Shown here: piece after piece, positions 30,629-56,735 of the stretch | Layout: every line of letters begins with the position of its first letter | How positions within the stretch are numbered: the first letter of the stretch is position 1 | DNA from: Dehalococcoidia bacterium | Lineage (GTDB): Bacteria > Chloroflexota > Dehalococcoidia > UBA2979 | Reading direction: 5' to 3' | Assembly: GCA_965262725.1 (NCBI GenBank) | Contig: OZ253555.1 | Location: forward strand, 2,784,001 to 2,848,000 | DNA: 64,000 bases | Made by a program: the position numbers and the translations under genes | Notes under the pieces: generated by a model | What the model was told of the DNA's origin: nothing | Seen by the model: the letters and a program-made list of their open reading frames with translations, nothing else | Database searches by the model: none

Positions 30629-31777
30629 CTAGCGCTCGGAGATCGGCACAAACCCGCGCACGTCCTCGCCGACGTAGATCTGACGCGGGCGAAAGAGGCG
30701 GTTGCCGGAGTCCCACTGCTCCCGCATGTGCACGACCCAGCCGAGCGTGCGCGACGCCGCGAAGAGCGGCGTGTAAAAGTCGACCGGGACGCCGATGCCG
30801 TTGAAAACGCAGCCCGAGAACAGGTCCACGTTGGGCCAGAGTCCCCGCTCGGAGAGCCGCTCGGTCGCGACGCGCTCCACCTCGAGCGCGATGTCGTAGA
30901 GATTGCGGTGCTCCGGAGCGACCAGAAGGCTCTCGGCGAGCCGCTGGATGACGATCGAGCGTGGATCCTTCACCTGGTAGATGCGGTGACCAAATCCGGG
31001 AATGCGCGCCCTCTCGTCGAGCATCCTGCTCACGAAGGCCGGGGCACTGTCGGGCTCGCCGATCTCCAGGAAGAGACGAATCGAGCGCTCGTTGGCGCCG
31101 CCGTGGGAGGGACCCGAGAGGGCGCCGATCGCCGCCGACACCACCGCCTCCGGCTCGGACCGGGTCGAGGTCACGACGCGCGTGGTGAAGGTGGAGGCGT
31201 TCCCGGCCGAATGGTCCGCCTGCAGGATCAACAGCGTGTCCATCGCCGCGACATGCTCCGCGGGGGGCTCGCCGCCGGTGATCATCCTCAGCACCATCGA
31301 GGCGTGCGACTCGCCCGACCGCGGTCCGTCGTAGGGACGACCGGCCGCCGCCTGCGCGATCACGCCCACGAGATGCCCGACCTTCGCGACTAGCGCGACG
31401 CCGCGCTCGCGGACCTCACCCAGTGACTGTTCGAAGTCGTTCTGCCGCGGCCCGAGGGCGGCAACCGCCGCCTGCAGGGCGAACATGGGGTGCGCGCCCT
31501 CGCCGGCTCGGCGCGCGATCTCGATCTGCGGCTCCGTGAGCGTGCGGGCGCTTTCCATCTCGGCCTGGACCTCGGCGATACGCGACGCCGTCGGGAGCTC
31601 GCCGTCGTAGAGCAGCGCGACGACTTCCTCGAAGGTGGTTGCGTGCGTGACATCTTCGATCGAGTAGCCGCGGTAGGTGAGCCGGCCCGCCGCTCCGTCC
31701 ACGAGCGAGACCGACGACTCGGCTATGGGAATCCCCTCTAGTCCCGGTATCAGAGTCGCGGTCGCGTCGGTCGTCAT
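30629..31777 (-). CDS. Citrate synthase / 2-methylcitrate synthase family
   Basis: GLEGI, LTYRGY, DH..NASTF, GPSHGGANE, GFGHRIY...DPR, PNVD. Confidence 0.93.
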   Translation of the reverse strand: MTTDATATLIPGLEGIPIAESSVSLVDGAAGRLTYRGYSIEDVTHATTFEEVVALLYDGELPTASRIAEVQAEMESARTLTEPQIEIARRAGEGAHPMFALQAAVAALGPRQNDFEQSLGEVRERGVALVAKVGHLVGVIAQAAAGRPYDGPRSGESHASMVLRMITGGEPPAEHVAAMDTLLILQADHSAGNASTFTTRVVTSTRSEPEAVVSAAIGALSGPSHGGANERSIRLFLEIGEPDSAPAFVSRMLDERARIPGFGHRIYQVKDPRSIVIQRLAESLLVAPEHRNLYDIALEVERVATERLSERGLWPNVDLFSGCVFNGIGVPVDFYTPLFAASRTLGWVVHMREQWDSGNRLFRPRQIYVGEDVRGFVPISER

Positions 31778-31943
31778 CACTCGTCCCCGCTCTCCGTCGC
31801 GACAGGCGCGCGCATCGCCACCGCGGGAGGCGCCGCGACCGTGCTTACCCGATGGGCGCGGCGCACGCGACGCCGTGCGGTGTCTCTCCGGGGGGGCAGT
31901 ATACGGGTGCGCGCCCGGCTGCGTGGGAGCGTCCGCGCGGGCC

Positions 31944-32690
31944 TCAGCCCCCGACCCGGTCGCCGGCATGCTCAGAGACGAATCCCGTGAGCAGTTCGCG
32001 CACCTCGTCGGCGTGCGAGTCGAGCGCGTGACCAGCACCCGGCAGGATCACGAGCTGCTTCGGCTCCCGGGCGCGCTCGAAGATGTCATCCGAGGCGGCG
32101 CGGTCGAGGACCGTGTCCTCGTCGCCGTGCACGAGCAGGAGCGGCTTGGCCAGCGCATTGACCTGCTCGGTGCCCGCGCGCTGCGGCGCGAGCGCCGCAA
32201 CCGCCGCCACGAGCGGCGCGAGGCCGCCTGCGCGGATCGCGACCGCGCCTCCGAACGAGACGCCGACGAGCACGACGCGCGCGGCCCCGATCCCCTTCAG
32301 GAAGGAGCAGCCAGCCAGCGCGTCGAGCACGCACTCGACGAGGTTGCCCGGCTCGCGGTACTGGAGGCGCAGCGATGTCACGCCGGCGGTCACAAGCTCG
32401 CGCGAGAGCCGCTCGTAGACCCCCTGCGCCGGCCCGCGGACGCCGCCCGAGGCCCCGCCCAGATAGATCGCGCAGCCGTCCCGGCCTTCGCACGGACGAA
32501 GCAGCCCCTCGAGGGAACCGCGCGAGGTCTCCAGCAGAACCGCGATCTCCCCGGGCTCGCCGGTCGGGCGGGCGCGCACATGCTTGATGCTAAGTTCGTA
32601 CGCCCCCTCGTCGACGCCGCCCGCGTGCGGTCCGCCATTATTCCCGCCGTCACCGTCCCTCGGCGGGCCGCCCGGCGGCCCCCCGCTCAC
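31944..32690 (-). CDS. Alpha/beta hydrolase
   Basis: GVSFGG nucleophile elbow, HGDED acid, GAGH His. Confidence 0.8.
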   Translation of the reverse strand: MSGGPPGGPPRDGDGGNNGGPHAGGVDEGAYELSIKHVRARPTGEPGEIAVLLETSRGSLEGLLRPCEGRDGCAIYLGGASGGVRGPAQGVYERLSRELVTAGVTSLRLQYREPGNLVECVLDALAGCSFLKGIGAARVVLVGVSFGGAVAIRAGGLAPLVAAVAALAPQRAGTEQVNALAKPLLLVHGDEDTVLDRAASDDIFERAREPKQLVILPGAGHALDSHADEVRELLTGFVSEHAGDRVGG

Positions 32691-44750: not shown

Positions 44751-45842
44751 ATGCTGCGCAACCCGCGCACCTTCGTCGAGCCACTCGCGATCGGGGCACC
44801 GGCGCCGCCTCGCGAGATCCCGGCGCGGCCGATGCGGATGGTCCACTTCTTCGACCCGAGCCACCCGCGAATGCGCGCGCGCATTCCGCAGATCATCCCC
44901 CAGGTGGATGTCCTCCTCGGCAACCTGGAGGACGCGATCGCCGCCGACAAGAAGGATGAGGCTCGCGCCGGGTTGATCGAGATCGCGCGCGAGAACGACT
45001 GCGGCGACACCGCGCTCTGGACCCGCGTCAACAGCCTCGACTCGCCGTGGTTCCTCGACGACATCACGGAGCTCGTCGCGACGATCGGCGACCGGCTCGA
45101 CGTGATCATGCTCCCCAAGGTGAACGGCCCGTGGGACATCACCTTCCTCGACCAGCTGTTGGCGCAGCTCGAGGCGAAGCACGCCATCCGGAAGCCACTG
45201 TTGGTGCACGCCGTCCTAGAGACAGCGATCGGCGTCGCCAACGTCGAGGAAATCGCCACCGCCAGCCCGCGCATGCAGGGGATGAGCCTTGGCCCCGCGG
45301 ACCTCGCCGCGTCGCGACGCATGAAGACGACGCGGGTCGGTGGCGGGCACCCGGGTTATGTCGTGCGGAGCGATCCCGACCCCGCAGACGCCGACGCGCC
45401 TCGGCCGACCGCGCAGCAGGATCTATGGCACTACACCATGGCGCGCATGGTGGACGCCTGTAACGCGGCGGGCTGCTACCCGTTCTACGGCCCCTTCGGC
45501 GACATCGCCGACCCCGTGGCCTGTGAGGATCAGTTCCGGAACGCGTTCCTGATGGGATGCGTCGGGGCGTGGTCCATCCACCCGAGCCAGATCGAGATTG
45601 CCAAGCGCGTCTTCTCCCCGCCCGCAGACGAGGTCGCCTTCGCACGCCGCATCACCGAGGCGATGGGCGACGGCTCCGGCGTGATCATGCTCGATGGAAA
45701 GATGCAGGACGATGCGACCTACAAGCAGGCGCAGGTCATGCTGACCACCGCGCGCCGGCTCGCCGAGCGAGACGCCGAGCTCGCCGCGCTCTACGGTTTC
45801 GAAAGCGGCTCCGGCGGGGGCGACGCCGCCCCGCAGGGCTAG
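44751..45842 (+). CDS. mcl: L-malyl-CoA/beta-methylmalyl-CoA lyase, Chloroflexus type
   Basis: [60 protein letters not shown], co-linear with C. aurantiacus Mcl as recalled. Confidence 0.88.
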
Positions 45843-45857
45843 GCGGCGGGAAGAGCG

Positions 45858-47072
45858 ATGCGCTTCTACGAGTTTGAGGCGAAGCAGCTGCTGCGGCGGC
45901 GCGGCGTTCCGCTCCCCGGAAGCCGGCTCGCGCACACGGCCGACGAGGCCGCGGATGCGCAGCGCGCGCTCGGCGGCCCGGTTGTCCTCAAGTCGCAGGT
46001 ACTCAGCGGCGGCCGCATGAAAGCGGGCGGCGTGCGCTTCGCCGATACCGCCGAGGAGGCCCGCAGCGCCGCCGAGGCCATCCTCGCGCTCTCGATCAAC
46101 GACCAGCGCCCCACCGGCGTGCTGGTCGAGCAGAAGGGCGAGATCGCGCAGGAGTACTACGCCGCCGTGACGTGGGACGGTCGAGCGAAGCGCCCCGTCA
46201 TCATCTTCAGCGACATGGGGGGCATCGACATCGAGGAGGTCGCCGAGACACACCCCGATCACCTCTCCCGCACGCACCTCTCGACCCTGCGCCCGCTCTC
46301 CGACTACCAGGCGAAGCTCGCCGTCGCGCGCACCGGCGTGACCGGCGGCGACCTCAACCGCCTCGGCCGCATCGTGCTCCAGCTCGCGCGCGCCTTCCGC
46401 GAACACGACCTGACGCTGGCGGAGATCAACCCGATCGGGAAGCTCACGGACGGCAGCATCCTCGCTCTCGACGCGCACATGGAGATGGAGGCGGAGGCGC
46501 GCGGCACGCACCGCGCCCTCCTCGCCGAGCTCGGGATCCCCGAGCACGACACCCGCCAGGCGCGTCCGCCCACCCCCTTCGAGGTCGCGGGTGCCCGAGT
46601 GGACGCCCAGGACACCCGCGGCGTCGCCGGCAACGTCACCGAGTTCTCGGGCACGCTCGGGCTCGTGATCGGGGCGGGCGGCGGCTCGCTCACCCTCTTC
46701 GACGCGGTGCGCGCCGCCGGCGGCGACCCCGCGAACTACTGCGAGGTCGGGGGCAATCCCTCGGTGCGCAAGACGGCCGCCCTCACGCAGCTCATCGTCT
46801 CGAAGCCGGGCGTAGACAAGATCGCGGTGATGATGAACGTCGTCTCCAACACCCGGGTCGACATCATGGCGCGCGGCGTGATCAAGGGGGTGATCGACGC
46901 CGGATTCGACCCGGCCGAGAAGATCGCGATCTTCCGCATCCCCGGCTCCTGGGAGGAGGAGGGCTTCGCCATCCTCAGGCGCTACGGCGTCGAGTACGTG
47001 GACCGGTCGGTCTCGATGCACGAGGCGGCGAGGCGCGCCGTCGCGAAGCTCGCTCGACCGGACGGGGGCTAG
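45858..47072 (+). CDS. ADP-forming acyl-CoA ligase beta subunit (SucC/MtkA-like, ATP-grasp)
   Basis: YEFEAK, VVLKSQVLSGGRMKAGGV, GGIDIEE, EINP, PANYCEVGG. Confidence 0.85.
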   Translation: MRFYEFEAKQLLRRRGVPLPGSRLAHTADEAADAQRALGGPVVLKSQVLSGGRMKAGGVRFADTAEEARSAAEAILALSINDQRPTGVLVEQKGEIAQEYYAAVTWDGRAKRPVIIFSDMGGIDIEEVAETHPDHLSRTHLSTLRPLSDYQAKLAVARTGVTGGDLNRLGRIVLQLARAFREHDLTLAEINPIGKLTDGSILALDAHMEMEAEARGTHRALLAELGIPEHDTRQARPPTPFEVAGARVDAQDTRGVAGNVTEFSGTLGLVIGAGGGSLTLFDAVRAAGGDPANYCEVGGNPSVRKTAALTQLIVSKPGVDKIAVMMNVVSNTRVDIMARGVIKGVIDAGFDPAEKIAIFRIPGSWEEEGFAILRRYGVEYVDRSVSMHEAARRAVAKLARPDGG

Positions 47073-47076
47073 CCGC

Positions 47077-47979
47077 GTGTCGATCCTCATCGACCGCGAG
47101 AGCACGTTCATCATCCAGGGGATCACGGGCCGCGAGGCCGTGACGATGGCCAGAGAGCTCCTGGACTACGGCGCGAAGTTGCTGGGCGGCGTCACGCCCG
47201 GGCGCAAGGGGCGAGAGGTGCACGGCGTTCCCGTGGAGGACACGGTGCGGGCGTTCACGGAGCGGACGCGAGTGGACGGCTCCATCGTCGTGGTCCCGCC
47301 GGCGTTCGCCGCCGACGCCGTGCACGAGGCCATCGAGGCCGGCGTGAAGCTGATCGTCGTCGTGACCGAGCGCATCCCGCGCAGGGAGGTCGCGGAGTTC
47401 GTGGAGCACGCCGAGCAGGAGGGCGCCCGCGTCATCGGCCCCAACTGTCTGGGTATCATCTCGCCGGGGAAGTCGCGGATGGGAGGGATCGGCGGCTCGG
47501 CGGACGCCACGCGCCGAGCCTTCCATCCGGGATCGGTCGGCGTGATGTCGCGCTCCGGCGGGATGACGGTCGAGATCGCGAACGCGCTCTCTCAGGCGGG
47601 GCTCGGCATCTCGACGGCGTGCTCAATCGGAGGCGACGCCATTATCGGCTCCACCTACGCCGAGCTCATGCCGCTCTTCGAGGGGGACCCGGAGACGCAG
47701 GGGATCGCCATTTACAGCGAGCCGGGCGGGCGCGCGGAGGCGGCGCTCGCCGAGTACATGGAGGCCGTCTCCTCGCGCCTTCCCGTGGTGGCCTTCATGG
47801 CCGGTCGCTTCATGGACGCTATGCCGGGGATGCGCTTCGGCCACGCCGGGACGATCGTGGAGGGACGCGAGGACACGACCGCGGAGAAGATCGAGCGCAT
47901 GGAGCGAGCCGGGATCGCCGTCGCCGACCGGATCGAGCACATCCCCGCGCTCCTGCGCGAGAGGATGGGCGCACGCTGA
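47077..47979 (+). CDS. ADP-forming acyl-CoA ligase alpha subunit (SucD/MtkB-like)
   Basis: IQGITG, IGPNCLG, SRSGG, IGGD, phospho-His motif FGHAG. Confidence 0.88.
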   Translation: MSILIDRESTFIIQGITGREAVTMARELLDYGAKLLGGVTPGRKGREVHGVPVEDTVRAFTERTRVDGSIVVVPPAFAADAVHEAIEAGVKLIVVVTERIPRREVAEFVEHAEQEGARVIGPNCLGIISPGKSRMGGIGGSADATRRAFHPGSVGVMSRSGGMTVEIANALSQAGLGISTACSIGGDAIIGSTYAELMPLFEGDPETQGIAIYSEPGGRAEAALAEYMEAVSSRLPVVAFMAGRFMDAMPGMRFGHAGTIVEGREDTTAEKIERMERAGIAVADRIEHIPALLRERMGAR

Positions 47980-48206
47980 TGCCGGACGGGCTCTTCATCC
48001 GCGTCGACATCGCCGAGTCGGTCCAGAAGGACCCGGAGCTCGTACAGCGCCTGATCGAGGTCTGTCCCGTCGACATCTTCGATCGGGCGGAGGGGGGTGG
48101 CGTGACGACGGTGACGGCGAACCTCGACGAGTGCACCCTCTGCGACCTCTGTATTCAGGCCGCGGGCGACGACCGCGTCCGAGTGGTGAAGCTTTACGCG
48201 GAGTAG
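47979..48206 (+). CDS. Small ferredoxin-like protein
   Basis: VCPVDIF and CTLCDLC; TGATG overlap with the ligase alpha gene. Confidence 0.75.
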   Translation: MPDGLFIRVDIAESVQKDPELVQRLIEVCPVDIFDRAEGGGVTTVTANLDECTLCDLCIQAAGDDRVRVVKLYAE

Positions 48207-48215
48207 GGGGCGACG

Positions 48216-48737
48216 ATGGCGACGATGCTGATCTCCGAGTCGATGGCGGACGGGCTCTCGCTCCAAGTGGGGCGGGAGTTCCAGGCCTCCCTCCAGTACG
48301 AGATGCTCGCGGCCTACTTCGAGCGAGAGGCGCTCCCCAATCTCGCCGCCCGCTACCGCGGGCAGGCCGAGGAGGAGCGGAGTCACGGACTCAAGCTGAT
48401 CGCCTTCCTCAACAACGCGGGCGCCATCGTCCGCATCCCCGCGATCGAGGCCGGGCAGGCCGAGTTCTCCTCACCCATGGAGGCGCTTGAACTCGCGCTG
48501 ACGAGCGAGACCGAGGTCACGAAGGCGATCAACACGCTGATGGATCTCGCCCTCGAGGAGCACGATCACATGTCGCGCGGCCTGCTCCAGTGGTTCGTCG
48601 ACGAGCAGCTCGAGGAGGTCGCAACCGCCGATGCGCTCGTGATCGTCGCCCGGCGCGCCAGCGGCGACCTCCTCTACCTCGAGCAGTACGTCGCGGGGCT
48701 CCCTGCGCCCGGCACCGAGGCCGACGCCCCGGCTTAG
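48216..48737 (+). CDS. Ferritin (non-heme)
   Basis: E..ASLQY, QAEEERSH, E.EVTKAI, LQWFVDEQLEE ferroxidase residues. Confidence 0.88.
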   Translation: MATMLISESMADGLSLQVGREFQASLQYEMLAAYFEREALPNLAARYRGQAEEERSHGLKLIAFLNNAGAIVRIPAIEAGQAEFSSPMEALELALTSETEVTKAINTLMDLALEEHDHMSRGLLQWFVDEQLEEVATADALVIVARRASGDLLYLEQYVAGLPAPGTEADAPA

Positions 48738-48996
48738 GCAGCAGCCGGCGCCCGCACCTGGTCTGATCTCTCGCAGGAGGCCGTCTCGCATCGACCCGGC
48801 AGCGCCGTAGCGGAAGCGACGACGACCTCATGAGGGCCCTGCGTCGAGGGAGAGCGGGTCGACGAGGAACTCATGGTGCTCCGTCCGACGGGAGAGCGGT
48901 AGGAGCACTCACACCGCGGCCGCTCCCTCCCACGCCCGGGCGGCCAGAGGTCGACGCGACTCGCGCTACGCTCGCGCGCAGTGAGAGCGGGACGAA

Positions 48997-49308
48997 TCAG
49001 AGCGCGCCGTCTCCCGTCGCCGACGGTGGCGGTGGCGGTGGCGGTGGCGAGATCGTCGGGCGGCCGTGCATCGCGATCTCCGTGTCGCGCTCCTGCCGGC
49101 GCAATGCCTCACCCGAGCAGCCGCGCGCACGCAGCTGACGCTCGAACATCTCGCGCTCGTGGCGGGCCGCCAGGAGTTCCGCGCGGCCGAAGCGGCCGCT
49201 CGTGTCGACGACGACCGCGTGGTACCGGCGCCACTCGCGGTAGAGCTCGGCACACCTCTCGTCGTGCTCGTGGCCGGGAGCGACGGACGGCTCCTCCGCC
49301 ACGGTCAT
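48997..49308 (-). CDS. Hypothetical small protein with poly-Pro tail
   Basis: ATGA overlap with the rpiB stop; GGAGG upstream. Confidence 0.55.
   Translation of the reverse strand: MTVAEEPSVAPGHEHDERCAELYREWRRYHAVVVDTSGRFGRAELLAARHEREMFERQLRARGCSGEALRRQERDTEIAMHGRPTISPPPPPPPPSATGDGAL
49025..49048. repeat. (GGTGGC)4 hexamer tandem repeat encoding poly-Pro on the minus strand
   Basis: Seen directly. Confidence 0.8.
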
Positions 49309-49745
49309 CCCCCTCCGGCGGGATCGATCTGCGCGATGCGCCGGGCGTGGCGTCCGCCATCGAAGGTGGTCCCCAGCCACATGTCGACGATCGCGACCGC
49401 GAGTTCCTCGCTCACCATTCGCTCGCCGATGGAGATCACGTTGGCGTCGTTGTGACGCCGCGCGAGCTCCGCCGCCTCGACGCTCCAGCACACAGCGCAG
49501 CGAATCCCCCGGAGCCGGTTCGCGACGATCGCCTCGCCGTTGCCCGAGCCGCCGAGCACGATGGCGCGCTCGCACTCGCCGCGTGCCACCGCCCCGGCCG
49601 CCGAGCGGATGAAGGGCGGGTAGTCGACCTCCTCCGCCGAGTTCGTCCCCATGTCGACGACATCGTGCCCGGCCGCCTCGAGGTGGCGACGGATCGTCTC
49701 CTTGTGGCGGTAGCCCGCGTGGTCGGAGGCGACGGCGATGCGCAT
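49305..49745 (-). CDS. rpiB: Ribose-5-phosphate isomerase B
   Basis: SDHAG, VDYP, GGSGNGE, ARRHNDAN, FDGGRHARRI. Confidence 0.93.
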   Translation of the reverse strand: MRIAVASDHAGYRHKETIRRHLEAAGHDVVDMGTNSAEEVDYPPFIRSAAGAVARGECERAIVLGGSGNGEAIVANRLRGIRCAVCWSVEAAELARRHNDANVISIGERMVSEELAVAIVDMWLGTTFDGGRHARRIAQIDPAGGG

Positions 49746-49753
49746 TCGCCGCG

Positions 49754-51424
49754 CTAGCCCCCGCGCGCGGCGCGTGCCAGAAGCTGGCGGCCGATCACCT
49801 TCAGCTCCAGCACTGGCTTGACGCCCTCGAAGATCGGGAGCACCAGCGCGTCCACGACGTACCGCGCGATCGGGTCCTCCTCGGAGAAACCCCAGCCGCC
49901 GTGCAGAAGCTGCGCCTCGCGCGTCACCTCGCCCGCGATGTCGCAGGCCAGGAGCTTCGCCATCGCCGGCTCCACGGCGCGTGTGTCGAAGTCCCGGGCC
50001 GCGACGTAGGTCAGCTGCCGCGCCGCCGCCGTGTGCGTCGCCATCACGCCGATCTTGTGCTGGGTCAGCTGGTACTCGGCGAGCGGGAGCCCAAACTGCG
50101 AGCGCTGCGTCACGTACTGACACGCCTTCTCGAGACCGGCCTGCGCCACGCCGATCGCGCGACCGCCGGTCTGCAGCCGTCCCGCGGCGAAGCCGCCCAT
50201 CTGCACGAAGAAGCCGTTGCCGATGCCGTCGTCCCCGCCGACCAGATTGGAATGCGACACCCAGACATCGTCGAGCGCGATCGTAAAGGAGTGCATGCCG
50301 CGGTAACCCGGCGTGGGGTTCGCCGTCCCCTCCATGACGCCACCCTGCGGCTGCTCGTAGCGCCAGTGGTGCCCCTCGAAGGTGGGTTTCGGCACCATGA
50401 AGAGCGAGAGACCGCGGTTGCCCGAGGCGGGATCGGGATCGGTGCGCGCGAGCAGGGCGAGTACGGTGGCGCGCCCGGAGAACGTGCTCCACGCCTTCTG
50501 CCCGCTGATGCGCCAGCCGCGCACGCCCTCGTGCTCGGAGGGGACGGCGCGCGTCTGGAGCGAGGCGACATCGGAGCCCACATCGGGCTCCGTCACCGCA
50601 ATCGCCACCAGTTCCTCGCCGGTGGCGATGCGCGGCAGCCACTGCGCGCGCTGCTCATCCGTGCCGCCGGAGAGGAGTGCCTTCGTCAAGATCTCCGGAC
50701 GCGTAGCGAGCGATCCGGCCGCCGCCAGCGACGCCATCGAGAGCTCTTCGGTGATGATGATCATCGGGAGATCGCCCATACCCGTCCCGCCGTACTGCTC
50801 CGGGATCGAGGACCCGAAGAAGCCCTGGCGCGAGAAGGCCTCCAGCAGCGAGTCGGGCACGAGCATGTCCTCGCGATGGATCTGCTGGGCGATCGGCGCG
50901 ACCTCGTTACGGGCGAACTCGCGTGCCATGTCGCGCGTCAGCGTGGCCGTCTCGTCCTCGAGGTCGACGTTGTTTGCGCCGAGGGTGGCGATCACCTCTC
51001 GGCCGAGCTCGCGCAGCCGCCCGTCCGCAAGGCCGCCGCGCAGTTCCACTCGGAGCGCCGGCTCGAGCAGCGGGCCGAGGTCGTCCTCCTCGAGCCCGAA
51101 CTCCCCCCACGCCGCCTCGATCGCCGAGCCGAGCGCGTGCGCGATCTCGGCCGCGTAGGCGTGCGCCATCATCGCCTGCCGCCAGTCCGGCTGGCCCTTC
51201 GCGGCGAGACGCTCTGCGTACGAAGTGAGTTCGTGCGCGGCCCGCACCTGCGTCGCGAGGTAGGAGACGCGCTCGACGTGCACCTGATGGTCGTCGATCC
51301 GGCGGCCGCCCTCGGTGAGCGCCGCAGCGCTCCGAAGCGCCGCACCAACAACACTCGTCGACGCCTCTACCAGCCGCCGCGCCGAGGCGATGGCCGCGCC
51401 CGGCGTGGTCTCCGTCGTCGTCAT
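49754..51424 (-). CDS. Acyl-CoA dehydrogenase, (2S)-methylsuccinyl-CoA dehydrogenase-like
   Basis: 556 aa with N-terminal extension; GSLATRPEI, TEPDVGSD, GYRGM, RLQTGGRAIG, IFEG; adjacent to mch. Confidence 0.75.
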   Translation of the reverse strand: MTTTETTPGAAIASARRLVEASTSVVGAALRSAAALTEGGRRIDDHQVHVERVSYLATQVRAAHELTSYAERLAAKGQPDWRQAMMAHAYAAEIAHALGSAIEAAWGEFGLEEDDLGPLLEPALRVELRGGLADGRLRELGREVIATLGANNVDLEDETATLTRDMAREFARNEVAPIAQQIHREDMLVPDSLLEAFSRQGFFGSSIPEQYGGTGMGDLPMIIITEELSMASLAAAGSLATRPEILTKALLSGGTDEQRAQWLPRIATGEELVAIAVTEPDVGSDVASLQTRAVPSEHEGVRGWRISGQKAWSTFSGRATVLALLARTDPDPASGNRGLSLFMVPKPTFEGHHWRYEQPQGGVMEGTANPTPGYRGMHSFTIALDDVWVSHSNLVGGDDGIGNGFFVQMGGFAAGRLQTGGRAIGVAQAGLEKACQYVTQRSQFGLPLAEYQLTQHKIGVMATHTAAARQLTYVAARDFDTRAVEPAMAKLLACDIAGEVTREAQLLHGGWGFSEEDPIARYVVDALVLPIFEGVKPVLELKVIGRQLLARAARGG

Positions 51425-51463
51425 GGGAACCCCCCTTAGGTCACCGCAGCTGGCGGACGGCGC

Positions 51464-52561
51464 CTAGCGCGCCATGGGCATCAGCACCGTGTAGTCGAGA
51501 TCGAGCACGACCGCGGGGTGGTAGCGCTCGCGGCCGTTCTCGCCCCTCACGCGCAGCGTCACGTCCTCGGTTGCCGGATCGGCGTTCTTCGCCGCTACCA
51601 GGCGCAGCCTGAGCGCGGCGGCGTCCGGGCGCCCGAGGTCGATACGCTCGAGCACGTCTGTCCACGCGAAGATGGTGTCGCCCGCGAAGGTCGGGCTCGC
51701 GTGCGTGCCGCCGTTGAAGGCGAGCACGCGGACCGCGTTCTCCAGTCCATTGAACGAGAGCTCCCGCGCCACGGAGATGACGTGGCCGCCGTAGATCACG
51801 CGGCGCCCGAAACGGCTCCCCTTCAGGGCATGCGCGTTGAAATGCGCGCGGGCCGTATTCTGGTAGAGACGCGCGGCCATCTGGTGCTCCGCCTCCTCGA
51901 TCGCGACACCCTCCACGTGGTGAATGCGCTCGCCCGCCTCGTAGTCCTCCCACCACGCGCGGCCGCCGGTCACTGCGGGATCGAAGGCGGCGAGGTCGAG
52001 TTCGGGCGGGACCACCAGGTCGGTGCTCGTGACGACGTCCGGCGTCGCCGGCGCGTCGTCGATTCCGGTCACCTCATCCGGCTCGCGCTTCGCCATGAGC
52101 ACCCAGCGGAGGAAGGAGAGCACCTCCTCGCCCCGCTGATTGCGGCCCACCGTGTGCACCCAGACGGCGCCGGTGTCACCGGAGCGCGACTCCCGGCGGC
52201 CGAGCACCGTCGTGCGCGAGCTGAGCGTGTCGCCGGGGTAGACAGGGGGGCCGAAACGCACGTCCGCGTAGCCTAGGTTGGCGATGGCATTGAGCGAGAT
52301 ATCCGGAACGGTGTTGCCGAACACGATGTGGAAGACGAGGAGATCGTTGACAGTCTCCCGCCGGAAGCCGAGTGCGCGCGCGAACTCGGCGTCGCAGTGC
52401 AGGGGGTAGCGGCTGGCGGTGAGCGCGATGTAGAGCGACTGATCGCCCTCGGTGACCGTGCGCGGCACGGCATGCTCGACCTCAAGCCCGGTCACCAGGT
52501 CCTCGAAGTAGTTGCCCGTGGTCGCCTTGCCGACCGCGGTCGCCGCCTCCCCTTTCGCCAC
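51464..52561 (-). CDS. mch: Mesaconyl-C1-CoA hydratase (double MaoC hot-dog fold)
   Basis: GNYFED, FHIVFGNTVPDISLNAIANLGY, IEEAEH...RLYQNTA..HFN, YGGHVIS, VVLDLDYTVLMP; co-linear with Chloroflexus Mch as recalled. Confidence 0.88.
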   Translation of the reverse strand: MAKGEAATAVGKATTGNYFEDLVTGLEVEHAVPRTVTEGDQSLYIALTASRYPLHCDAEFARALGFRRETVNDLLVFHIVFGNTVPDISLNAIANLGYADVRFGPPVYPGDTLSSRTTVLGRRESRSGDTGAVWVHTVGRNQRGEEVLSFLRWVLMAKREPDEVTGIDDAPATPDVVTSTDLVVPPELDLAAFDPAVTGGRAWWEDYEAGERIHHVEGVAIEEAEHQMAARLYQNTARAHFNAHALKGSRFGRRVIYGGHVISVARELSFNGLENAVRVLAFNGGTHASPTFAGDTIFAWTDVLERIDLGRPDAAALRLRLVAAKNADPATEDVTLRVRGENGRERYHPAVVLDLDYTVLMPMAR

Positions 52562-52676
52562 GCGCACCCCCCGCCCGCGCCCATTGTAGGGCGAGGGGAT
52601 CGATACGCGCCCGGAGCGCCGGCGGGGGTCGATATACTGCGCTCGGACGGCAAACGACCGGGAAGGGAGAGGCGAC

Positions 52677-52904
52677 GTGGGGTCCAAGGAGCTAGCGGCG
52701 CTGCTCACCGTGCTTGAGCAGGAGCTCGCGCGCGGGCGCGAGGGGCACATCATCGGAACGTGGACGATCCGGTACGAGAAGGAGCGCAGCGCGTTCTCCT
52801 TCGACAAGTGCGAGAACGACGGCTACTGCGAGGAGCGGCCCGCCGTGCTCGCGCTCGACGGCTCCGTGCTCGACCCGGGCGGCCCGATCGTGATCGGGGG
52901 TTGA
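52677..52904 (+). CDS. Hypothetical 75-aa protein with CxxxxxC
   Basis: GGAGAGG RBS, upstream TATACT at 52633-52638, typical codon usage. Confidence 0.6.
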   Translation: MGSKELAALLTVLEQELARGREGHIIGTWTIRYEKERSAFSFDKCENDGYCEERPAVLALDGSVLDPGGPIVIGG

Positions 52905-52908
52905 GGCC

Positions 52909-53784
52909 ATGACGGACACGACGTCGGTGGCCGACCTCTCACACTGCGCGGTCGCCGTGCGCGACCTCGACGAGGCAGTCACCACCTACGAGCGGCTCTT
53001 CGGGCTTCAGGTCGGTGAGCGAGGCGCGAACCCGTGGGGGCACTTCCGCTGGGCGCAGATGGGCTGGGCCGGCGAGCAGGCGATCCAGTTGATCCAGCCG
53101 GAGAGCGACGACACCCACGTGACGCGCGTGATGCGTGCACGTGCCACGGAGAAGAACCCGCACGGTGAGGGCTACTACATCTCCGTCTGGACCACACCGG
53201 ATCCTGCCGCCCTCGCCGCGCGCATCGAGTCGAGCGGCGGGCGCGTGATCGACCGCGGCGACGGATCCGGCGTCCACTGGGTGCACCCCTCGGCGGCGCA
53301 CGGCGCCTTCCTCGAGATCGTTCCTCAGAAGGCGCCCACGCCGGAGGGGACCCCGCTTCGGATCTCGCACCTCGGGGTCGCGGTCGCCGACCTCGACGAG
53401 GCCGAGGAGACCTTCCGAGAGCGCTTCGGCTGGGTCCGCCCGGACGAGCGATGGGTGCTCGAGTCGGGCGACTTCGAGGCCGCCTCGATCTTCGCCGGCG
53501 ACGCGCAGGCGATGACACTGATCCAGCCGCGCACCCCGGAGAGCCCGATAGCCGTCGAGATGCGCAGGCGCGCCGACGAGAAGAACCCGCGCGGCGAGGG
53601 GCCGCACATCTCGGTCTGGACGTCGCCCGACACGGCCGCCGTCGCCGAGCGCATCGAGGCGGGCGGCGGCCGTGTGATCCGGACGTCGGGCTGGCCCGGC
53701 GCCGGCAGCATGCTGATCCCCCCGTCGGTGACGCACGGAATGCTCATGGAGGTGACGCCCCAGCGCGCCGAGCCAGCGCACTAG
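52909..53784 (+). CDS. VOC-family protein with two methylmalonyl-CoA-epimerase-like modules
   Basis: Internal duplication SH.AVAV.DLDEA...LIQP...EKNP.GEG..ISVWT.PD.AA.A.RIE..GGRVI...HG...E. Confidence 0.75.
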   Translation: MTDTTSVADLSHCAVAVRDLDEAVTTYERLFGLQVGERGANPWGHFRWAQMGWAGEQAIQLIQPESDDTHVTRVMRARATEKNPHGEGYYISVWTTPDPAALAARIESSGGRVIDRGDGSGVHWVHPSAAHGAFLEIVPQKAPTPEGTPLRISHLGVAVADLDEAEETFRERFGWVRPDERWVLESGDFEAASIFAGDAQAMTLIQPRTPESPIAVEMRRRADEKNPRGEGPHISVWTSPDTAAVAERIEAGGGRVIRTSGWPGAGSMLIPPSVTHGMLMEVTPQRAEPAH

Positions 53785-54467: not shown

Positions 54468-55745
54468 CTAGAACTCGCGGCGGCGGAGTTGACCCGCCGG
54501 GCGGCGGTAGTAGGCGATCAGATCCGTGGGCGGACGCGCCGCGAGGACGAGCGGGACGCCGACGGCGACGACCGCCGCCGAGATCAGCCAGCCCGGCGTG
54601 TAACCGCCCCCCGAGTCGACGATCAACCCCACCGTGAGGGGCCCCCCGAACGACCCGATCGTGACCCACAGTCGGGAGAGACCGGCGATCGTGCCGAAGC
54701 TCGTCGTCCCGAAGTAGTCGGCGAGCAGAGCCGGACGGAGTGGGGCCGTCCCGCCGAAGCCCGGCGCCACGATCAGCATCACGAGGTAGCTCTGCTTGAG
54801 GGTGTGCACAAGCGGCATTAGCGCGATCCCCACCGCCATCAGGGCAATCGCACCGGCGAGTATCACGCGCTTATCGTAGCGATCGGCGAGCCAGCCGCCG
54901 GAGAGACGCCCCACGACCGAGGCGAGCGCGAAGGCGAGCACCGTGCTCCCCGCCTCCGCCTTGGAGACGCCCAGCGACTCCATGAACGGCACCTGGTGCA
55001 CGATCAGGGCGGTCCAGCCGAAGCCGTTGGCAATGAGGCCGAGCGCGAGCAGCAAGAAGGCGCGCGTCCGGATCGCGCGGCGCGCGGGGATGCCCCAGGC
55101 ATCGCCCCGGGCGCCGCCGTCGTCCGCAGCGGCCGGGAGACCATCCATCGGCTGCGGATGCCCCCGGGGCCGGCGGCGCACGTTGACCCCGGCGAGCGAA
55201 CCGGCGAGCAGCACGACGACCGCGAGCACGCGGAGGGCGATGCGCCATCCGAGCTCGTCGACGAGCAGCGCCACCGGCACCGTCATCACACCCGCCGCGG
55301 CGCCCCCCAGCGAGAGCATCGCCAGCGCGCGGCCGCGGCGCGCCTCGAACCAACTCGCCGCGGCCACCGTGCCGACCGGCCCCGAGGCGGAACTGATCCC
55401 GAGCGCGATCAGCACCATCGCCAGGTAGAACTGCCAGATGCTCTCCATGTAGGAGGTCAGCAGGACCCCCAAACAGACCAGTGCCAGCCCGCCGATCAAC
55501 ACCCTCTGCGGACCAAGTCGGTCGATGGCGACGCCGATCACGGGCGCGGCGATGCCGCCCGCCTCCGAGCGCACCGAGAAGGCGAGGCTCGTCGCCGCCA
55601 CGCTCCAGCCGAACTCGTCGATGATCGGGTTGAAGATTGTGCCGAAGCCGTAGAAGAAGGCGCCCCCGATGAAGGTGGTGATCGCAGCCGCCGAGAAGAC
55701 GACCAGCCAGCCTTCGTAGACGTTCGGGAAGAGGCGCCTGAGCAC
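54468..55745 (-). CDS. MFS transporter (OFA/MCT-like)
   Basis: Y.GWLVV, EFGWS, WFEARRGRA, GWLADRY, DYFG...FGTI; about 12 TM. Confidence 0.85.
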   Translation of the reverse strand: MLRRLFPNVYEGWLVVFSAAAITTFIGGAFFYGFGTIFNPIIDEFGWSVAATSLAFSVRSEAGGIAAPVIGVAIDRLGPQRVLIGGLALVCLGVLLTSYMESIWQFYLAMVLIALGISSASGPVGTVAAASWFEARRGRALAMLSLGGAAAGVMTVPVALLVDELGWRIALRVLAVVVLLAGSLAGVNVRRRPRGHPQPMDGLPAAADDGGARGDAWGIPARRAIRTRAFLLLALGLIANGFGWTALIVHQVPFMESLGVSKAEAGSTVLAFALASVVGRLSGGWLADRYDKRVILAGAIALMAVGIALMPLVHTLKQSYLVMLIVAPGFGGTAPLRPALLADYFGTTSFGTIAGLSRLWVTIGSFGGPLTVGLIVDSGGGYTPGWLISAAVVAVGVPLVLAARPPTDLIAYYRRPAGQLRRREF

Positions 55746-55937
55746 CGGCCCGCCCCTCGCCCCTGCGCGCCGCCCGCGCGACGGGCGTCGGGCCGGCCTC
55801 ACGCTCCGATGACGCTCTCCCTCGCGTCCGCCATCATACAGAGGCTCGCGCCGGCGGCGGCCTTGCGGCGACGCCCGGCCTCGTGCACGGTGCGCGGGCG
55901 CCGGGGCCGCCCTGCGAGGTGTGGCGAGGAGCGTGCC

Positions 55938-56735
55938 GTGGACTATTCGGGATTTCGCGACATCGTCGTCACGGTCGAGGATCGCGTCGCCACCTTCCGC
56001 ATCGACCGGCCAGAGACCCTGAACTCGTTCGGGCCAGACAGCTGGAACGAGTTGCTGACCCTCGCGCGCATGCTCAACGAGGATGACCAGGTGCGCGCCG
56101 TGGTCTGCGCCCCCGAGGGACGGGGCTTCAGCTCCGGCGCCTACGTTGGCGAGCGGGGCACACCCGACCCCTCAACCGCGCCGCGCTTCGCCGACCGCAC
56201 GCATCGCATGGGAAACGCAGCCATCGGCCTCGCGATGCCCTCCATCGACAAGCCGACCATCGCGGTGATCGACGGCGTCGCCGCCGGGGCGGGGATGGCC
56301 TTCGCCTGCTCCTTCGACATCCGGATCCTCGGACCGGGCGCACGCTTCACGACGGTCTTCGTGCGCCGGGCGCTGGGTCCAGATTGCGGCCTTACCTGGT
56401 TCCTGCCGCGCTTGGTGGGACCGGGGCTCGCGGCGGAGTTGCTCTTCTCGGGCCGCGAGGTGGGGGCGGAAGAGGCAGCTCGGATCGGGCTGGGCAACCG
56501 CCTCGTCGACGACCCGCGCGGCGAGGCGCAGGCGCTCGCTCGCGAGCTCGCCCAGGCGCCCCCGCTCTCGATCCTGTGGTCGAAGCGCGAGCTGCAGGAG
56601 AGCGACCGCCACACCCTCAGCGAGCAGATCGAGTTCGAGTGGGTGGCCGCCCGGCACTTCCGGGGCAGCCGTGACGTCGAGGAGGGGATGCGGGCGTTCC
56701 GCGAGAAGCGCGAGCCCCGCTTCACGGGGGAGTAG
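55938..56735 (+). CDS. Enoyl-CoA hydratase/isomerase (crotonase) family
   Basis: DRPETLNS, KPTIAVIDGVAAGAG, PDCGLTWFLPRLVG, EGMRAFREKREPRF. Confidence 0.88.
   Translation: MDYSGFRDIVVTVEDRVATFRIDRPETLNSFGPDSWNELLTLARMLNEDDQVRAVVCAPEGRGFSSGAYVGERGTPDPSTAPRFADRTHRMGNAAIGLAMPSIDKPTIAVIDGVAAGAGMAFACSFDIRILGPGARFTTVFVRRALGPDCGLTWFLPRLVGPGLAAELLFSGREVGAEEAARIGLGNRLVDDPRGEAQALARELAQAPPLSILWSKRELQESDRHTLSEQIEFEWVAARHFRGSRDVEEGMRAFREKREPRFTGE

Follow-up and report, generated by a model that had tools for sequence, protein, structure and literature searches.

The window, by which we mean the whole 64,000-nucleotide stretch analyzed, holds a plus-strand operon that converges with a set of minus-strand genes. 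The operon opens with mcl (44751..45842; 363 aa, ATG start at 44751 checked), encoding a predicted Chloroflexus-type (S)-malyl-CoA/beta-methylmalyl-CoA/citramalyl-CoA lyase, and continues with ligB (45858..47072) and ligA (47077..47979), the putative beta (ATP-grasp) and alpha (CoA-binding, phosphohistidine) subunits of an ADP-forming-type acid-CoA ligase. These are followed by a gene for a 75-aa single-cluster ferredoxin-like protein (47979..48206), whose start overlaps the ligA stop, and finally by one for a ferritin-like protein (48216..48737; Pfam Ferritin, 104.2 bits). On the minus strand lie mch (51464..52567; GTG start candidates at 52567 or 52561), for a putative fused double-hotdog mesaconyl-CoA hydratase; mcd (49754..51424), for a 556-aa acyl-CoA dehydrogenase (ACAD) of the (2S)-methylsuccinyl-CoA dehydrogenase type; and, downstream of mcd, rpiB (49305..49745), for ribose-5-phosphate isomerase B. 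Gaps between genes are operon-like (plus strand: 15, 4, -1, and 9 nt; minus strand: 39 and 8 nt). A two-domain VOC/glyoxalase-fold gene (52909..53784, plus strand) diverges from mch as a loose associate of the module, and a carboxylate-type MFS transporter gene (54468..55802, minus strand; start possibly at 55745; MFS_1, 143.5 bits) lies beside it. Pfam, NCBIfam, and PDB matches recovered all nine genes of the initial annotation where it had placed them.

The arrangement of the module is not due to chance, because mcl-ligB-ligA is kept convergent with mch-mcd in six of eight other related loci, down to 62% Mcd identity, a count that sets aside one locus (L003) 100% identical to that of the window and that comes from genomes that are kin rather than independent samples. 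The linkage that the initial annotation had proposed is thus conserved among Dehalococcoidia relatives. A 2.9-kb fragment (L009) agrees with this arrangement, and an 11.4-kb locus (L010) carries mch-mcd only. All module genes are under purifying selection in the window genome and its sister species G180 (dN/dS between the two of 0.06-0.25).

Lyase, hydratase, and dehydrogenase

Enzyme identities were drawn from PDB, Pfam, and NCBIfam scores together with residue checks. Mcl scores 508 bits against PDB entries 4l7z/4l80 and 6kin versus 206 bits for 4l9y, which is of the Rhodobacter type, matches Pfam HpcH_HpaI (87.9 bits), and has all seven MCLC active-site residues that were checked (N58, E60, D61, R92, E157, D184, and D318; list from PMC3832036). 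Mch scores 399 bits against 4e3e, 350 bits against 8hgn, and 78.3 bits against Pfam MC_hydratase (cut-off 26.5). We therefore assign the former as a Chloroflexus-type malyl-CoA lyase and the latter as a fused mesaconyl-CoA hydratase, in agreement with the Chloroflexus-type affinity first suggested for both.

Mcd scores 413 bits against 8ciw (query residues 34-553) and 276 bits against 6es9 (residues 8-549), versus 200 bits for the best other ACAD in PDB. Its R242, R375, R422, and E533 correspond to the arginine triad and catalytic glutamate of PdMCD (R252, R376, R421, and E535; PMC5798300), and all four are conserved in 120-121 of the 121 sequences compared (the window protein and 120 homologues). 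With its N-terminal extension, these features place the protein in the Mcd family, as had been proposed, and we assign it as an ethylmalonyl-pathway-type methylsuccinyl-CoA dehydrogenase. The methyl pocket differs from that of the alphaproteobacterial enzymes, which have Ala at a position occupied by Val in 64 and Ile in 57 of the 121 sequences (Ile275 in the window) and by Ala in none.

This pocket bears on a natural "fumaryl-CoA route," in which the ligase would form succinyl-CoA, the Mcd-like enzyme fumaryl-CoA, Mch malyl-CoA, and Mcl acetyl-CoA and glyoxylate. Ile275 falls at the I275 position of the Pseudomonas migulae enzyme PmMcd (8CIW), the closest solved relative, for which PMC10266731 gives a pronounced side activity toward succinyl-CoA (5.2 U/mg, Km 78 uM) and, moreover, hydration of fumaryl-CoA by an Mch; the A282V exchange in RsMCD raises efficiency with succinyl-CoA (PMC5798300); and the ligase is itself an SCS-superfamily member. 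However, PMC10266731 still treats PmMcd as a methylsuccinyl-CoA dehydrogenase, the co-occurrence of the module with Ccr (below) points to methylsuccinyl-CoA, ligB is without the FGGI.R.D stretch of SCS-type enzymes, a housekeeping sucCD is encoded elsewhere in the genome, and there is no evident physiological need for such a route, which we consider improbable.

The ligase next to the lyase

The ligB product matches Pfam ATP-grasp_2 (163.7 bits) and, weakly, Citrate_bind; a Pfam search found no Ligase_CoA domain in it. Its PDB matches are 3ufx_B (183 bits) and 6hxq_B (161 bits), and with the latter it shares an RPPT..RG.AG insert and the motifs GGNP and NTRVD; its C-terminal half carries citryl-CoA synthetase motifs where SCS has the FGGI.R.D stretch. 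Citryl-CoA synthetase is a hydroxy-acid-activating enzyme. The ligA product combines CoA_binding, Succ_CoA_lig, and Ligase_CoA domains with a phosphohistidine motif, GHAG, at residue 255. Orthology to housekeeping SucCD or to proteobacterial MtkAB was considered and rejected, as scores fall under the NCBIfam cut-offs (ligB, 235 vs. 370 for SucC and 183 vs. 604 for MtkA; ligA, 279 vs. 336 bits for SucD) and identity to the genome's other sucC and sucD is 35% and 40%, respectively. Thus, the ADP-forming ligase initially proposed beside the lyase is upheld by its ATP-grasp_2 domain and phosphohistidine motif, but a simple likeness to SucCD is not, given the citryl-CoA-synthetase-like acid-binding half.

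Among the 201 Dehalococcoidia genomes of our class sample, 25 have ligase orthologues, 20 of them together with Ccr, and the ligase adjoins CitE-family lyases that fall into three subtypes, namely the MCL_C type (window, L004-L008, L011, G069, G157, and G105), a G119 type (G119, G175, and G124), and another CitE-like type (G123, G141, and G033). The lyase-ligB-ligA adjacency occurs in at least six families of the sample (f1, f28, f53, f58, f60, and f61) and in others. G119 has the gene order mch-mcd-lyase-ridA-ligB-ligA-MFS and an adjoining malic enzyme gene; in G123 and G141 the ligase is clustered with Ccr and a clade-B mutase (defined below); and the lyase-ligase pair is present even where neither Mcd nor Ccr gave a hit (G175, 91% complete, and G033, 96% complete). 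One could suppose that the enzyme serves independently as a citryl-CoA or succinyl-CoA synthetase and that its place beside the lyase means nothing functionally; both the motifs common to ligB and 6hxq_B and the label [quoted passage not shown] that JGI gives to relatives would fit. We find this highly improbable: the ligase genes adjoin lyases of three subtypes in those six or more families, and here mcl, ligB, and ligA are separated by just 15 and 4 nt.

The two-subunit ligase may instead represent a third branch, alongside the succinyl-CoA and citryl-CoA synthetases, acting on the hydroxyacyl-CoA of the lyase. Coupled to the lyase, it probably interconverts malyl-CoA and malate, most likely as malyl-CoA + ADP + Pi <-> malate + ATP + CoA; we infer both substrates and direction, and the enzyme could represent a malate-CoA ligase of a new kind. 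If it acts thus, it would stand in for the step otherwise catalyzed by malyl-CoA thioesterase or malate synthase, with a saving of one ATP. Malate synthase occurs in three of 25 ligase-positive versus 36 of 176 other genomes and in five of nine Mcd-positive genomes without the ligase; the two are not cleanly complementary across genomes.

Pathway context and competing readings

The window genome encodes a crotonyl-CoA carboxylase/reductase (Ccr; 542.6 bits, above the equivalog cut-off of 378.55) and one propionyl-CoA-carboxylase-type carboxyltransferase (644.7 bits). Searches of this genome found no malate synthase and only partial matches to ICL (up to 51 bits). Across the class sample, 27 genomes have Mcd orthologues and 47 have Ccr, which is present in 26 of the 27 Mcd-positive genomes versus 21 of the 174 others. 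A mutase of clade B, defined by an identity of 64% or more to the G030 copy adjoining Ccr, is present in 55 genomes (39 of 47 Ccr-positive vs. 16 of 154 others; 23 of 27 Mcd-positive), and in G030, G089, G160, G123, and G062 its gene is no more than 5 kb away from Ccr; ten f6 genomes have clade-B-like copies with Ccr absent. We call clade B Ecm-like and clade A Mcm-like purely from gene neighborhood and distribution; scores against PDB and NCBIfam do not separate the clades. The single mutase of the window genome, as of G180, is of clade A, and no Ecm-like mutase or remnant of one was found in either genome, which leaves no candidate enzyme here for the conversion of ethylmalonyl-CoA to methylsuccinyl-CoA.

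With confidence evenly balanced, we read the block from its sequence as most likely the C5-dicarboxyl-CoA segment, or lower half, of an ethylmalonyl-CoA-type pathway with a lyase-coupled malyl-CoA/malate ligase. Mcd would oxidize (2S)-methylsuccinyl-CoA to mesaconyl-C1-CoA, with electrons presumably passing to ETF; Mch would hydrate this to beta-methylmalyl-CoA; and Mcl would cleave the latter to propionyl-CoA and glyoxylate and condense glyoxylate with acetyl-CoA to (S)-malyl-CoA. We infer a flow from Ccr to Mcd; with no Ecm-like mutase found, this genus would need its single mutase to act on ethylmalonyl-CoA as well, or else an outside supply of methylsuccinyl-CoA or mesaconyl-CoA. Of the two readings first offered, the hybrid acetate-assimilation route gains support from the presence of Ccr, the failure to find malate synthase, and the association of Mcd with Ccr, but with the Ecm-like mutase absent a complete ethylmalonyl-CoA pathway is not supported in this genome.

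Since G000 (the window genome) and G180 keep the module under purifying selection without an Ecm-like mutase, uptake and breakdown of methylsuccinate or mesaconate is a serious rival, if an unlikely one. The MFS protein would import the acid, the ligase would make its C1-CoA ester, and Mcd, Mch, and Mcl would yield propionyl-CoA and glyoxylate, with a single block covering the whole linear route; the module of this genus would then be what remains of an ethylmalonyl pathway, now serving degradation. The MFS gene adjoins mch in L003, L004, L006, L008, and L011, and a different one adjoins the module in G119, which fits uptake of an external acid. The genome is also rich in acyl-CoA metabolism (69 family-III CoA-transferase and 33 ACAD matches), and methylsuccinate utilization clusters are known from pseudomonads and Cupriavidus (PMC12290011). 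However, the ligase stays beside a lyase even where no Mcd orthologue was found (G175, G033, and G124); in G123 and G141, where it accompanies Ccr and the clade-B mutase, its substrate would be made intracellularly; Mcd tracks Ccr; and ligB, in its acid-binding half, looks like a hydroxy-acid (citrate) enzyme and not like SCS.

Least probable of all is glyoxylate assimilation as in the 3-hydroxypropionate bi-cycle, with propionyl-CoA and glyoxylate passing via beta-methylmalyl-CoA, mesaconyl-CoA, and citramalyl-CoA to acetyl-CoA and pyruvate. Families f82 and f114 do have Mcl and Mch of the window type in the order CoA-transferase-mcl-mch, which matches the Chloroflexus arrangement; on the suggested bearing of the module on where bi-cycle parts originated, the analysis covered this distribution of the genes. 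But the window genome holds no close relative of that CoA transferase (best match, 27.8% identical) and no Pcs-like long fusion (four AMP-binding matches, open frames all at most 695 aa), and the linked gene here is mcd, whose product the bi-cycle does not use.

Accessory and neighboring genes

The VOC gene had been described as epimerase-like. It is present and divergent from mch, but its match to the methylmalonyl-CoA epimerase model is under the cut-off (70.6 bits vs. 115; PDB epimerases, about 30 bits), and it is not a conserved module member, being found in L003, L004, and L006, single-domain in L008, and absent from L011. Glyoxalase_4, Glyoxalase_3, and Glyoxalase each match two stretches of the protein, which has at least four paralogues elsewhere in the genome. 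For the MFS protein, the closest NCBIfam models describe an L-lactate MFS transporter and the oxalate/formate antiporter family, and neither match reaches its cut-off.

Like the VOC gene, the ferredoxin-like and ferritin genes are kept only in nearer relatives (both present in L003-L009 and absent from L011). The 75-aa protein has the cysteine pattern C29-P ... C53xxC56xxC59, with Fer4_7 (19.8 bits) and Fer4 (17.1 bits) both under cut-off; the named Atlas clusters closest to it carry Fer4_ETF_QO at 0.90, no more than a lead. The rpiB product matches LacAB_rpiB (177.8 bits) and the NCBIfam rpiB equivalog (141.7; cut-off 138.65), and its gene follows mcd in L003-L007, L009, and L011.

Gene content and enzyme identities

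The genome that carries the window (G000; the window is C1:2784001-2848000) is a single contig of 3.67 Mb with ~71% G+C, and the nearest homologues of the window proteins are labelled as Dehalococcoidia or Chloroflexota MAGs. High G+C gives rise to numerous spurious ORFs; genes were chosen by third-position G+C and profile matches. On the plus strand are mcl (window positions 44751-45842), ligase beta (ligB, 45858-47072), and ligase alpha (ligA, 47077-47979), and the operon ends with genes for a 75-aa ferredoxin-like protein carrying a CP...CxxCxxC motif (47979-48206) and a ferritin (48216-48737). Convergent to these, on the minus strand, are mch (51464-~52567), the acyl-CoA dehydrogenase (ACAD) gene mcd (49754-51424; 556 aa), and rpiB (49305-49745), 8 nt after mcd. 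Beyond mch lie a divergent two-domain VOC gene (52909-53784), a minus-strand gene for an MFS carboxylate-type transporter (54468-55802), and an enoyl-CoA hydratase gene (about 55953-56735), and the outer flanks hold unrelated genes (PBP, TrkA-type, RDD-family, luciferase-like monooxygenase, hydrolases). Elsewhere in the window, a citrate synthase family gene of citrate or methylcitrate synthase type is found at 30629-32047, 13 kb upstream of the module, and genome-wide the two-domain VOC protein has at least four paralogues. Ferritin and rpiB are separated by a convergent spacer of 570 nt (48740-49300), in which a proline-rich ORF of 100 aa, matching no family, runs on the minus strand. A promoter/terminator scan of the block was uninformative (no promoter-like and three terminator-like sites vs 1.5 expected).

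Among Mcl structures in the PDB, the malyl-CoA lyase (Mcl) reaches 508 bits with those of Chloroflexus aurantiacus and Roseiflexus and 206 bits with the Rhodobacter type. In the alignment to 4l7z, it keeps all seven residues N58, E60, D61, R92, E157, D184, and D318, and its C-terminal lid domain is full length, the alignment reaching residue 347 of the 348-residue chain. For the MCLC group, PMC3832036 describes Arg92 and Asp318 as catalytic and Glu157 and Asp184 as Mg ligands, together with Glu60, Asp61, and a group-specific Asn58; this signature asparagine is a likeness to the 3-hydroxypropionate (3-HP) bi-cycle enzymes of Chloroflexus and Roseiflexus (mcl/mch structures 4L7Z/4L80, 6KIN, 4E3E, 8HGN). 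Mesaconyl-CoA hydratase (Mch) matches the Chloroflexus Mch structure 4e3e over its whole length (399 bits, chain residues 4-350). It has the fused double (R)-hydratase fold of ~350 aa and exceeds the cut-off of PF19315 MC_hydratase (78.3 vs 26.5 bits, profile positions 19-334 of 353), and it falls below that of the NCBIfam haloarchaeal model (81.5 vs 560 bits).

The initial annotation had described the ACAD as Mcd-like, and PDB scores and key residues give no sign that it groups outside the clade of methylsuccinyl-CoA dehydrogenases (Mcd). It scores 413 bits to the enzyme of P. migulae (PmMcd, 8CIW), 276 to that of Paracoccus (PdMCD, 6ES9), and 200 to the best ordinary ACAD. The hallmarks of Mcd, according to PMC5798300, are an N-terminal extension of ~170 residues, an arginine triad for the terminal carboxylate (R252, R376, and R421 in PdMCD), and the catalytic base Glu535. 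All are present here: Pfam ACAD domains begin at residue 158 of the 556-aa ORF, alignments cross the extension (6es9 over residues 8-549, 8ciw over 34-553), and R242, R375, R422, and E533 align with the four PdMCD residues and are kept in 120, 121, 121, and 121, respectively, of 121 sequences (the window and 120 homologues). At the methyl-pocket position (PdMCD Ala285), the alphaproteobacterial enzymes have Ala and the window enzyme has Ile275, as does PmMcd (I275); across the same 121 sequences, the residue is Val in 64 and Ile in 57. As far as scores and residues tell, the ACAD is thus an Mcd of the ethylmalonyl-pathway type, a predicted (2S)-methylsuccinyl-CoA dehydrogenase.

The PmMcd-like Ile/Val pocket, together with kinetics in PMC10266731, suggests a different use that we consider very improbable, namely a natural “fumaryl-CoA route” from C4 to C2 compounds. 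Succinate would be activated, the Val/Ile-pocket Mcd relative would form fumaryl-CoA, Mch would convert this to malyl-CoA, and Mcl would release acetyl-CoA and glyoxylate, bypassing fumarase, malate dehydrogenase, and isocitrate lyase. The same source reports that PmMcd with I275 in its methyl pocket is active on methylsuccinyl-CoA.

Read instead as the lower ethylmalonyl-CoA pathway known from Rhodobacter/Cereibacter, Paracoccus, and Methylobacterium (Mcd, Mch, Mcl1, Mcl2), the block would follow the expected Mcd-Mch-Mcl reaction order. It resembles that pathway in the Mcd extension, arginine triad, and catalytic Glu (PMC5798300) and in the occurrence of crotonyl-CoA carboxylase/reductase (Ccr) within G000; it differs in having a lyase and hydratase of Chloroflexus type, Ile rather than Ala in the methyl pocket, and a two-subunit ligase where the thioesterase Mcl2 would act, and in that an ethylmalonyl-CoA mutase (Ecm)-like gene was not found in G000.

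The nearest named Atlas clusters of the small ferredoxin-like protein bear the ETF-QO ferredoxin domain. A protein of this kind would be suited to taking up electrons that leave the ACAD, but we treat the similarity as a lead only. rpiB keeps its place after mcd in relatives down to 54% identity (locus L011), and a link to the pathway is not evident.

A ligase paired with CitE-family lyases

By Pfam and motif, the ligase fits the succinyl-CoA synthetase (SCS) superfamily, with an ATP-grasp beta subunit and a CoA-binding alpha subunit whose phosphohistidine motif GHAG is at residue 255. Both subunits are under the NCBIfam SucCD equivalog cut-offs (beta 235 vs 370, alpha 279 vs 336), and a separate sucCD at 3.10 Mb in the same genome is 35-40% identical to them. 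LigB has no match to Pfam Ligase_CoA and a weak, sub-cut-off match to Citrate_bind (20.6 vs 26.8 bits). In residue-level alignment, its C-terminal half has in common with CcsA, the citryl-CoA synthetase subunit of Hydrogenobacter thermophilus (6hxq_B), an RPPT..RG.AG insert, GGNP, and NTR(V/I)D. In the SCS of Thermus and E. coli, the insert is absent and GGG. and FGGI.R.D stand at the corresponding places; NVVSNTRVD of LigB is found where these enzymes carry NIFGGI.R.D. The likeness to 6hxq_B (161 bits) stops at residue 347, and for the N-terminal half Thermus SCS is the better match (183 bits). The sub-cut-off scores, the missing SCS-type FGGI.R.D, and the presence of sucCD elsewhere argue against SucCD as the identity of the ligase, which is probably a third branch of the superfamily with an acid substrate other than succinate.

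The conserved setting of the ligase offers further indications of its role. Among 80 related loci, nine are true orthologues (62-100% identity), and 71 ordinary ACADs (28-37% identity, mostly Actinomycetota) were dropped. Setting aside L003, which is identical to the window, mcl-ligB-ligA is convergent with mch-mcd in six of the eight orthologous loci; what the L009 fragment contains fits this arrangement, and L010 has mch-mcd only. Linkage is therefore conserved in relatives, where the initial annotation had proposed to test synteny. The accessory genes vary: the ferredoxin-like gene and ferritin are retained in L003-L009, the MFS gene in L003, L004, L006, L008, and L011, and the two-domain VOC gene in L003, L004, and L006 only. 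Other families of the class carry these parts together with different lyases, as mch-mcd-lyase-ridA-ligB-ligA-MFS with an adjoining malic enzyme in G119, mch-mcd-lyase in G030 and G006, lyase-ligB-ligA in G175 and G124, ligB-ligA-lyase in G033, and mcl-ligB-ligA with a mutase and one more CitE-like gene adjoining it in G157 and G105. A CitE-like lyase-ligB-ligA-Ccr-ACAD-MaoC-mutase cluster is present in G123 and G141. The feature that stays constant across families with differing lyases is the ligase beside a CitE-family lyase.

We propose that the ligase would take as substrate the hydroxyacyl-CoA of its partner lyase, the simplest case being an interconversion of malyl-CoA and malate with a physiological direction towards malate. 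This role is argued for by its constant place beside three lyase subtypes, even where Mcd or Ccr is lacking, by its occurrence inside the Ccr-mutase clusters, by the malic enzyme that adjoins it in G119, and by its citryl-CoA-synthetase-like acid-binding half. Such a role matches the earlier suggestion of an ADP-forming ligase rather than a malyl-CoA thioesterase. Tentatively, and with a confidence a little short of even, we regard the lyase-ligase pair as a new, non-orthologous malate thiokinase system through which an ethylmalonyl-type pathway would gain ATP in its final step.

Two known ligase-lyase systems provide points of comparison. In the serine cycle of Methylobacterium, where mtkAB and mcl are linked, MtkAB and malyl-CoA lyase parallel the proposed malate/malyl-CoA reaction, with a two-subunit SCS-superfamily ligase encoded with the lyase. 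The window ligase is not an orthologue of MtkAB, being far under the cut-off of the proteobacterial malate-CoA ligase MtkA model (NF010647, 183 vs 604 bits), and differs from it in the citryl-CoA-synthetase-like C-terminal half of its beta subunit and in the proposed direction towards malate. From CcsAB it differs in overall score and in its SCS-like N-terminal half; moreover, its partner lyase is of the CitE family, unlike the citryl-CoA lyase of Hydrogenobacter, which has a citrate-synthase-like fold, and its genomic company is Mcd, Mch, and Ccr rather than rTCA genes. In addition to the motifs of CcsA, the two systems have in common that a ligase using ATP acts first and a lyase, as an enzyme of its own, acts second (PMC13147460).

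In engineered routes, the reverse glyoxylate shunt for example, the malate thiokinases known so far form a weak link, and a new malate-CoA ligase family would for this reason be of practical use if the main reading is true. The malyl-CoA thioester energy would then be recovered as ATP by a ligase from an uncharacterized branch related to SCS and citryl-CoA synthetase.

Completeness of the pathway in the genome and across Dehalococcoidia

The initial annotation had raised a hybrid acetate-assimilation route as a possibility. Of the remaining ethylmalonyl-CoA pathway genes, G000 has Ccr above the equivalog cut-off (TIGR01751, 542.6 vs 378.55 bits), and an Ecm-like mutase was not found, the genome having one acyl-CoA mutase catalytic subunit (a single MM_CoA_mutase match, of clade A). 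One acyl-CoA carboxylase carboxyltransferase was found. The Ccr gene is apart from the module and outside the window (G000:C1:860854-862032; L001:7849-9090), where its neighbors are a tartronate-semialdehyde-reductase-like gene in divergent orientation and a pair of DUF35/thiolase-like genes. A glyoxylate shunt in G000 was rejected, as malate synthase was not found and matches to the ICL family were partial only. Likewise, the methylaspartate route was rejected as a source of mesaconate, since the search for the glutamate mutase E subunit found none and the methylaspartase match, at 25 bits, is below cut-off. G000 has five HpcH/CitE-family genes besides mcl, and its repertoire of acyl-CoA enzymes is much enlarged, with 69 matches to CoA_transf_3 and 33 to ACAD over the 3.67 Mb.

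Mutases of five related genomes fall into three clades. Clade B is <5 kb from Ccr in G030, G089, G160, G123, and G062, and clade A is near-universal; from this neighborhood alone, we call clade B Ecm-like and clade A Mcm-like (methylmalonyl-CoA mutase). PDB and NCBIfam scores fail to split the clades, both of which score alike against Mcm and HcmA, and Ecm/Mcm signature residues were not found in the part of the literature available. With a clade-B limit of ≥64% identity (the gap lies between 64% and 61%), clade B is present, within the Dehalococcoidia sample, in 39 of the 47 genomes that have Ccr and in 16 of the 154 that do not; ten genomes of family f6 have clade-B-like genes without Ccr. 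G000 and its sister species G180 have clade A only, and a clade-B copy or remnant was not found in G000.

Co-occurrence was counted in 201 Dehalococcoidia genomes, G000 included, which are kin, so that the counts are no statistical test. Orthologues of Mcd occur in 27 genomes, Ccr in 47, and ligB in 25. Almost every Mcd-positive genome has Ccr (26 of 27, the exception, G108, being fragmented), and clade B occurs in 23 of these 27 genomes, all but G000, G180, G038, and G111. Among the ligB-positive genomes, 18 have Mcd and 20 have Ccr; the seven that lack an Mcd orthologue include two that are <75% complete, and nine Mcd-positive genomes, of families f7 and f31, lack a ligB orthologue. Malate synthase (39/201) is present in 3/25 ligB-positive and 5/9 Mcd-positive, ligB-negative genomes, a weak hint of complementarity between malate synthase and ligase.

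What the enzymes are, how Mcd is tied to both Ccr and the Ccr-linked mutase, and the lack of a glyoxylate shunt together argue for an ethylmalonyl-type pathway in the class, and we give an even chance to the reading of the block as its lower half. The weakness of this reading is G000 itself, where a gap lies between Ccr and Mcd because an Ecm-like mutase was not found. This absence, along with the carboxylate-type MFS transporter next door, leaves room for another reading, also raised in the initial annotation, in which the block would degrade imported methylsuccinate or mesaconate; we hold it to be less likely. The low dN/dS against G180 indicates that the module and Ccr are maintained in the genus without an Ecm-like mutase (Ccr 0.12, mcl 0.11, ligB 0.14, ligA 0.07, mcd 0.075, mch 0.13, remaining module genes 0.06-0.25). 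A genus with Ccr and Mcd under selection and the Ecm-like mutase lost would imply either that its mutase is bifunctional or that the module has turned to C5-acid degradation.

If the ethylmalonyl-type reading is true, aerobic members of the Dehalococcoidia, a large and mostly uncultured group, assimilate C2 units by such a pathway with Mcl and Mch of Chloroflexus type. A search of open-licence papers and bioRxiv for the ethylmalonyl-CoA pathway in Dehalococcoidia or Chloroflexi apparently met with incidental mentions only, and a report of such a pathway in these groups was not found.

A second cluster type, seen at L083 (G123:C85) and L084 (G141:C143), joins the CitE-like lyase, ligB, ligA, and Ccr to an AcrC-like ACAD devoid of the N-terminal extension, one single MaoC hydratase, and a mutase of clade B. 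This could represent the pathway in a parallel form.

Relation to the 3-HP bi-cycle and to itaconate clusters

Chloroflexus-type Mcl (E ≤1e-90) was found in 23 of 401 Chloroflexota genomes, namely G000, G022, and 21 genomes of families f82 and f114. This Mcl type therefore occurs in two parts of the phylum that lie far apart, and the search met it in none of the remaining sampled families. Compared with their f82/f114 counterparts, the Dehalococcoidia copies have identities of ~64-66% for Mcl and ~54% for Mch, and in G022, the other Dehalococcoidia genome concerned, neither ligB nor mch is within 9 kb of mcl. The surroundings also differ, with a ligase and an Mcd as neighbors in the window and a family-III CoA transferase as the neighbor in f82/f114, seen in one f82 (G410) and one f114 genome (G469) in the order CoA transferase-mcl-mch. 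By two of its markers, a 3-HP bi-cycle in G000 is very improbable: for the mesaconyl-CoA C1-C4 CoA transferase expected next to mcl, an orthologue of the f82/f114 transferase was not found, the best of the 69 family-III matches having 27.8% identity, and there is no fusion resembling propionyl-CoA synthase (Pcs) among four AMP-binding matches with open frames of ≤695 aa. The patchy sharing of Mcl and Mch between Dehalococcoidia and f82/f114 provides concrete material for the question of where the bi-cycle parts originated. Outside the window, at G000:C1:1533579-1535472 (L002:4763-5692), a family-III CoA transferase is directly upstream of a CitE-like lyase, and it is the best G000 match (35-40%) to two further CoA transferases near the f82/f114 mcl.

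The itaconate-methylsuccinate clusters of Pseudomonas and Cupriavidus (Ict, Ich, Ccl, methylsuccinyl-C4-CoA dehydrogenase, Msi), as described in PMC12290011, resemble the block in combining a methylsuccinyl-CoA ACAD, a MaoC-type hydratase, and a CitE-family lyase, and some also carry a VOC-fold gene. According to the same source, their ACAD uses the C4-CoA ester, their route leads to citramalyl-CoA, acetyl-CoA, and pyruvate, and activation is by CoA transferase; the block has a ligase, and its ACAD, to judge from the N-terminal extension, would be of the C1-ester (ethylmalonyl-pathway) type. A Pfam search of the block did not find the itaconate CoA transferase, MmgE/PrpD isomerase, or C4-ester-specific ACAD families, and given these missing markers and the ACAD extension, the block does not match a cluster of the Pseudomonas type. 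Elsewhere in the genome, outside the window at G000:C1:3385266-3389569, an itaconate-degradation-like set is made up of a single-domain MaoC hydratase, which shares 41% identity with Mch over the first half of the latter, together with a CitE-like lyase and a pair of family-III CoA transferases.
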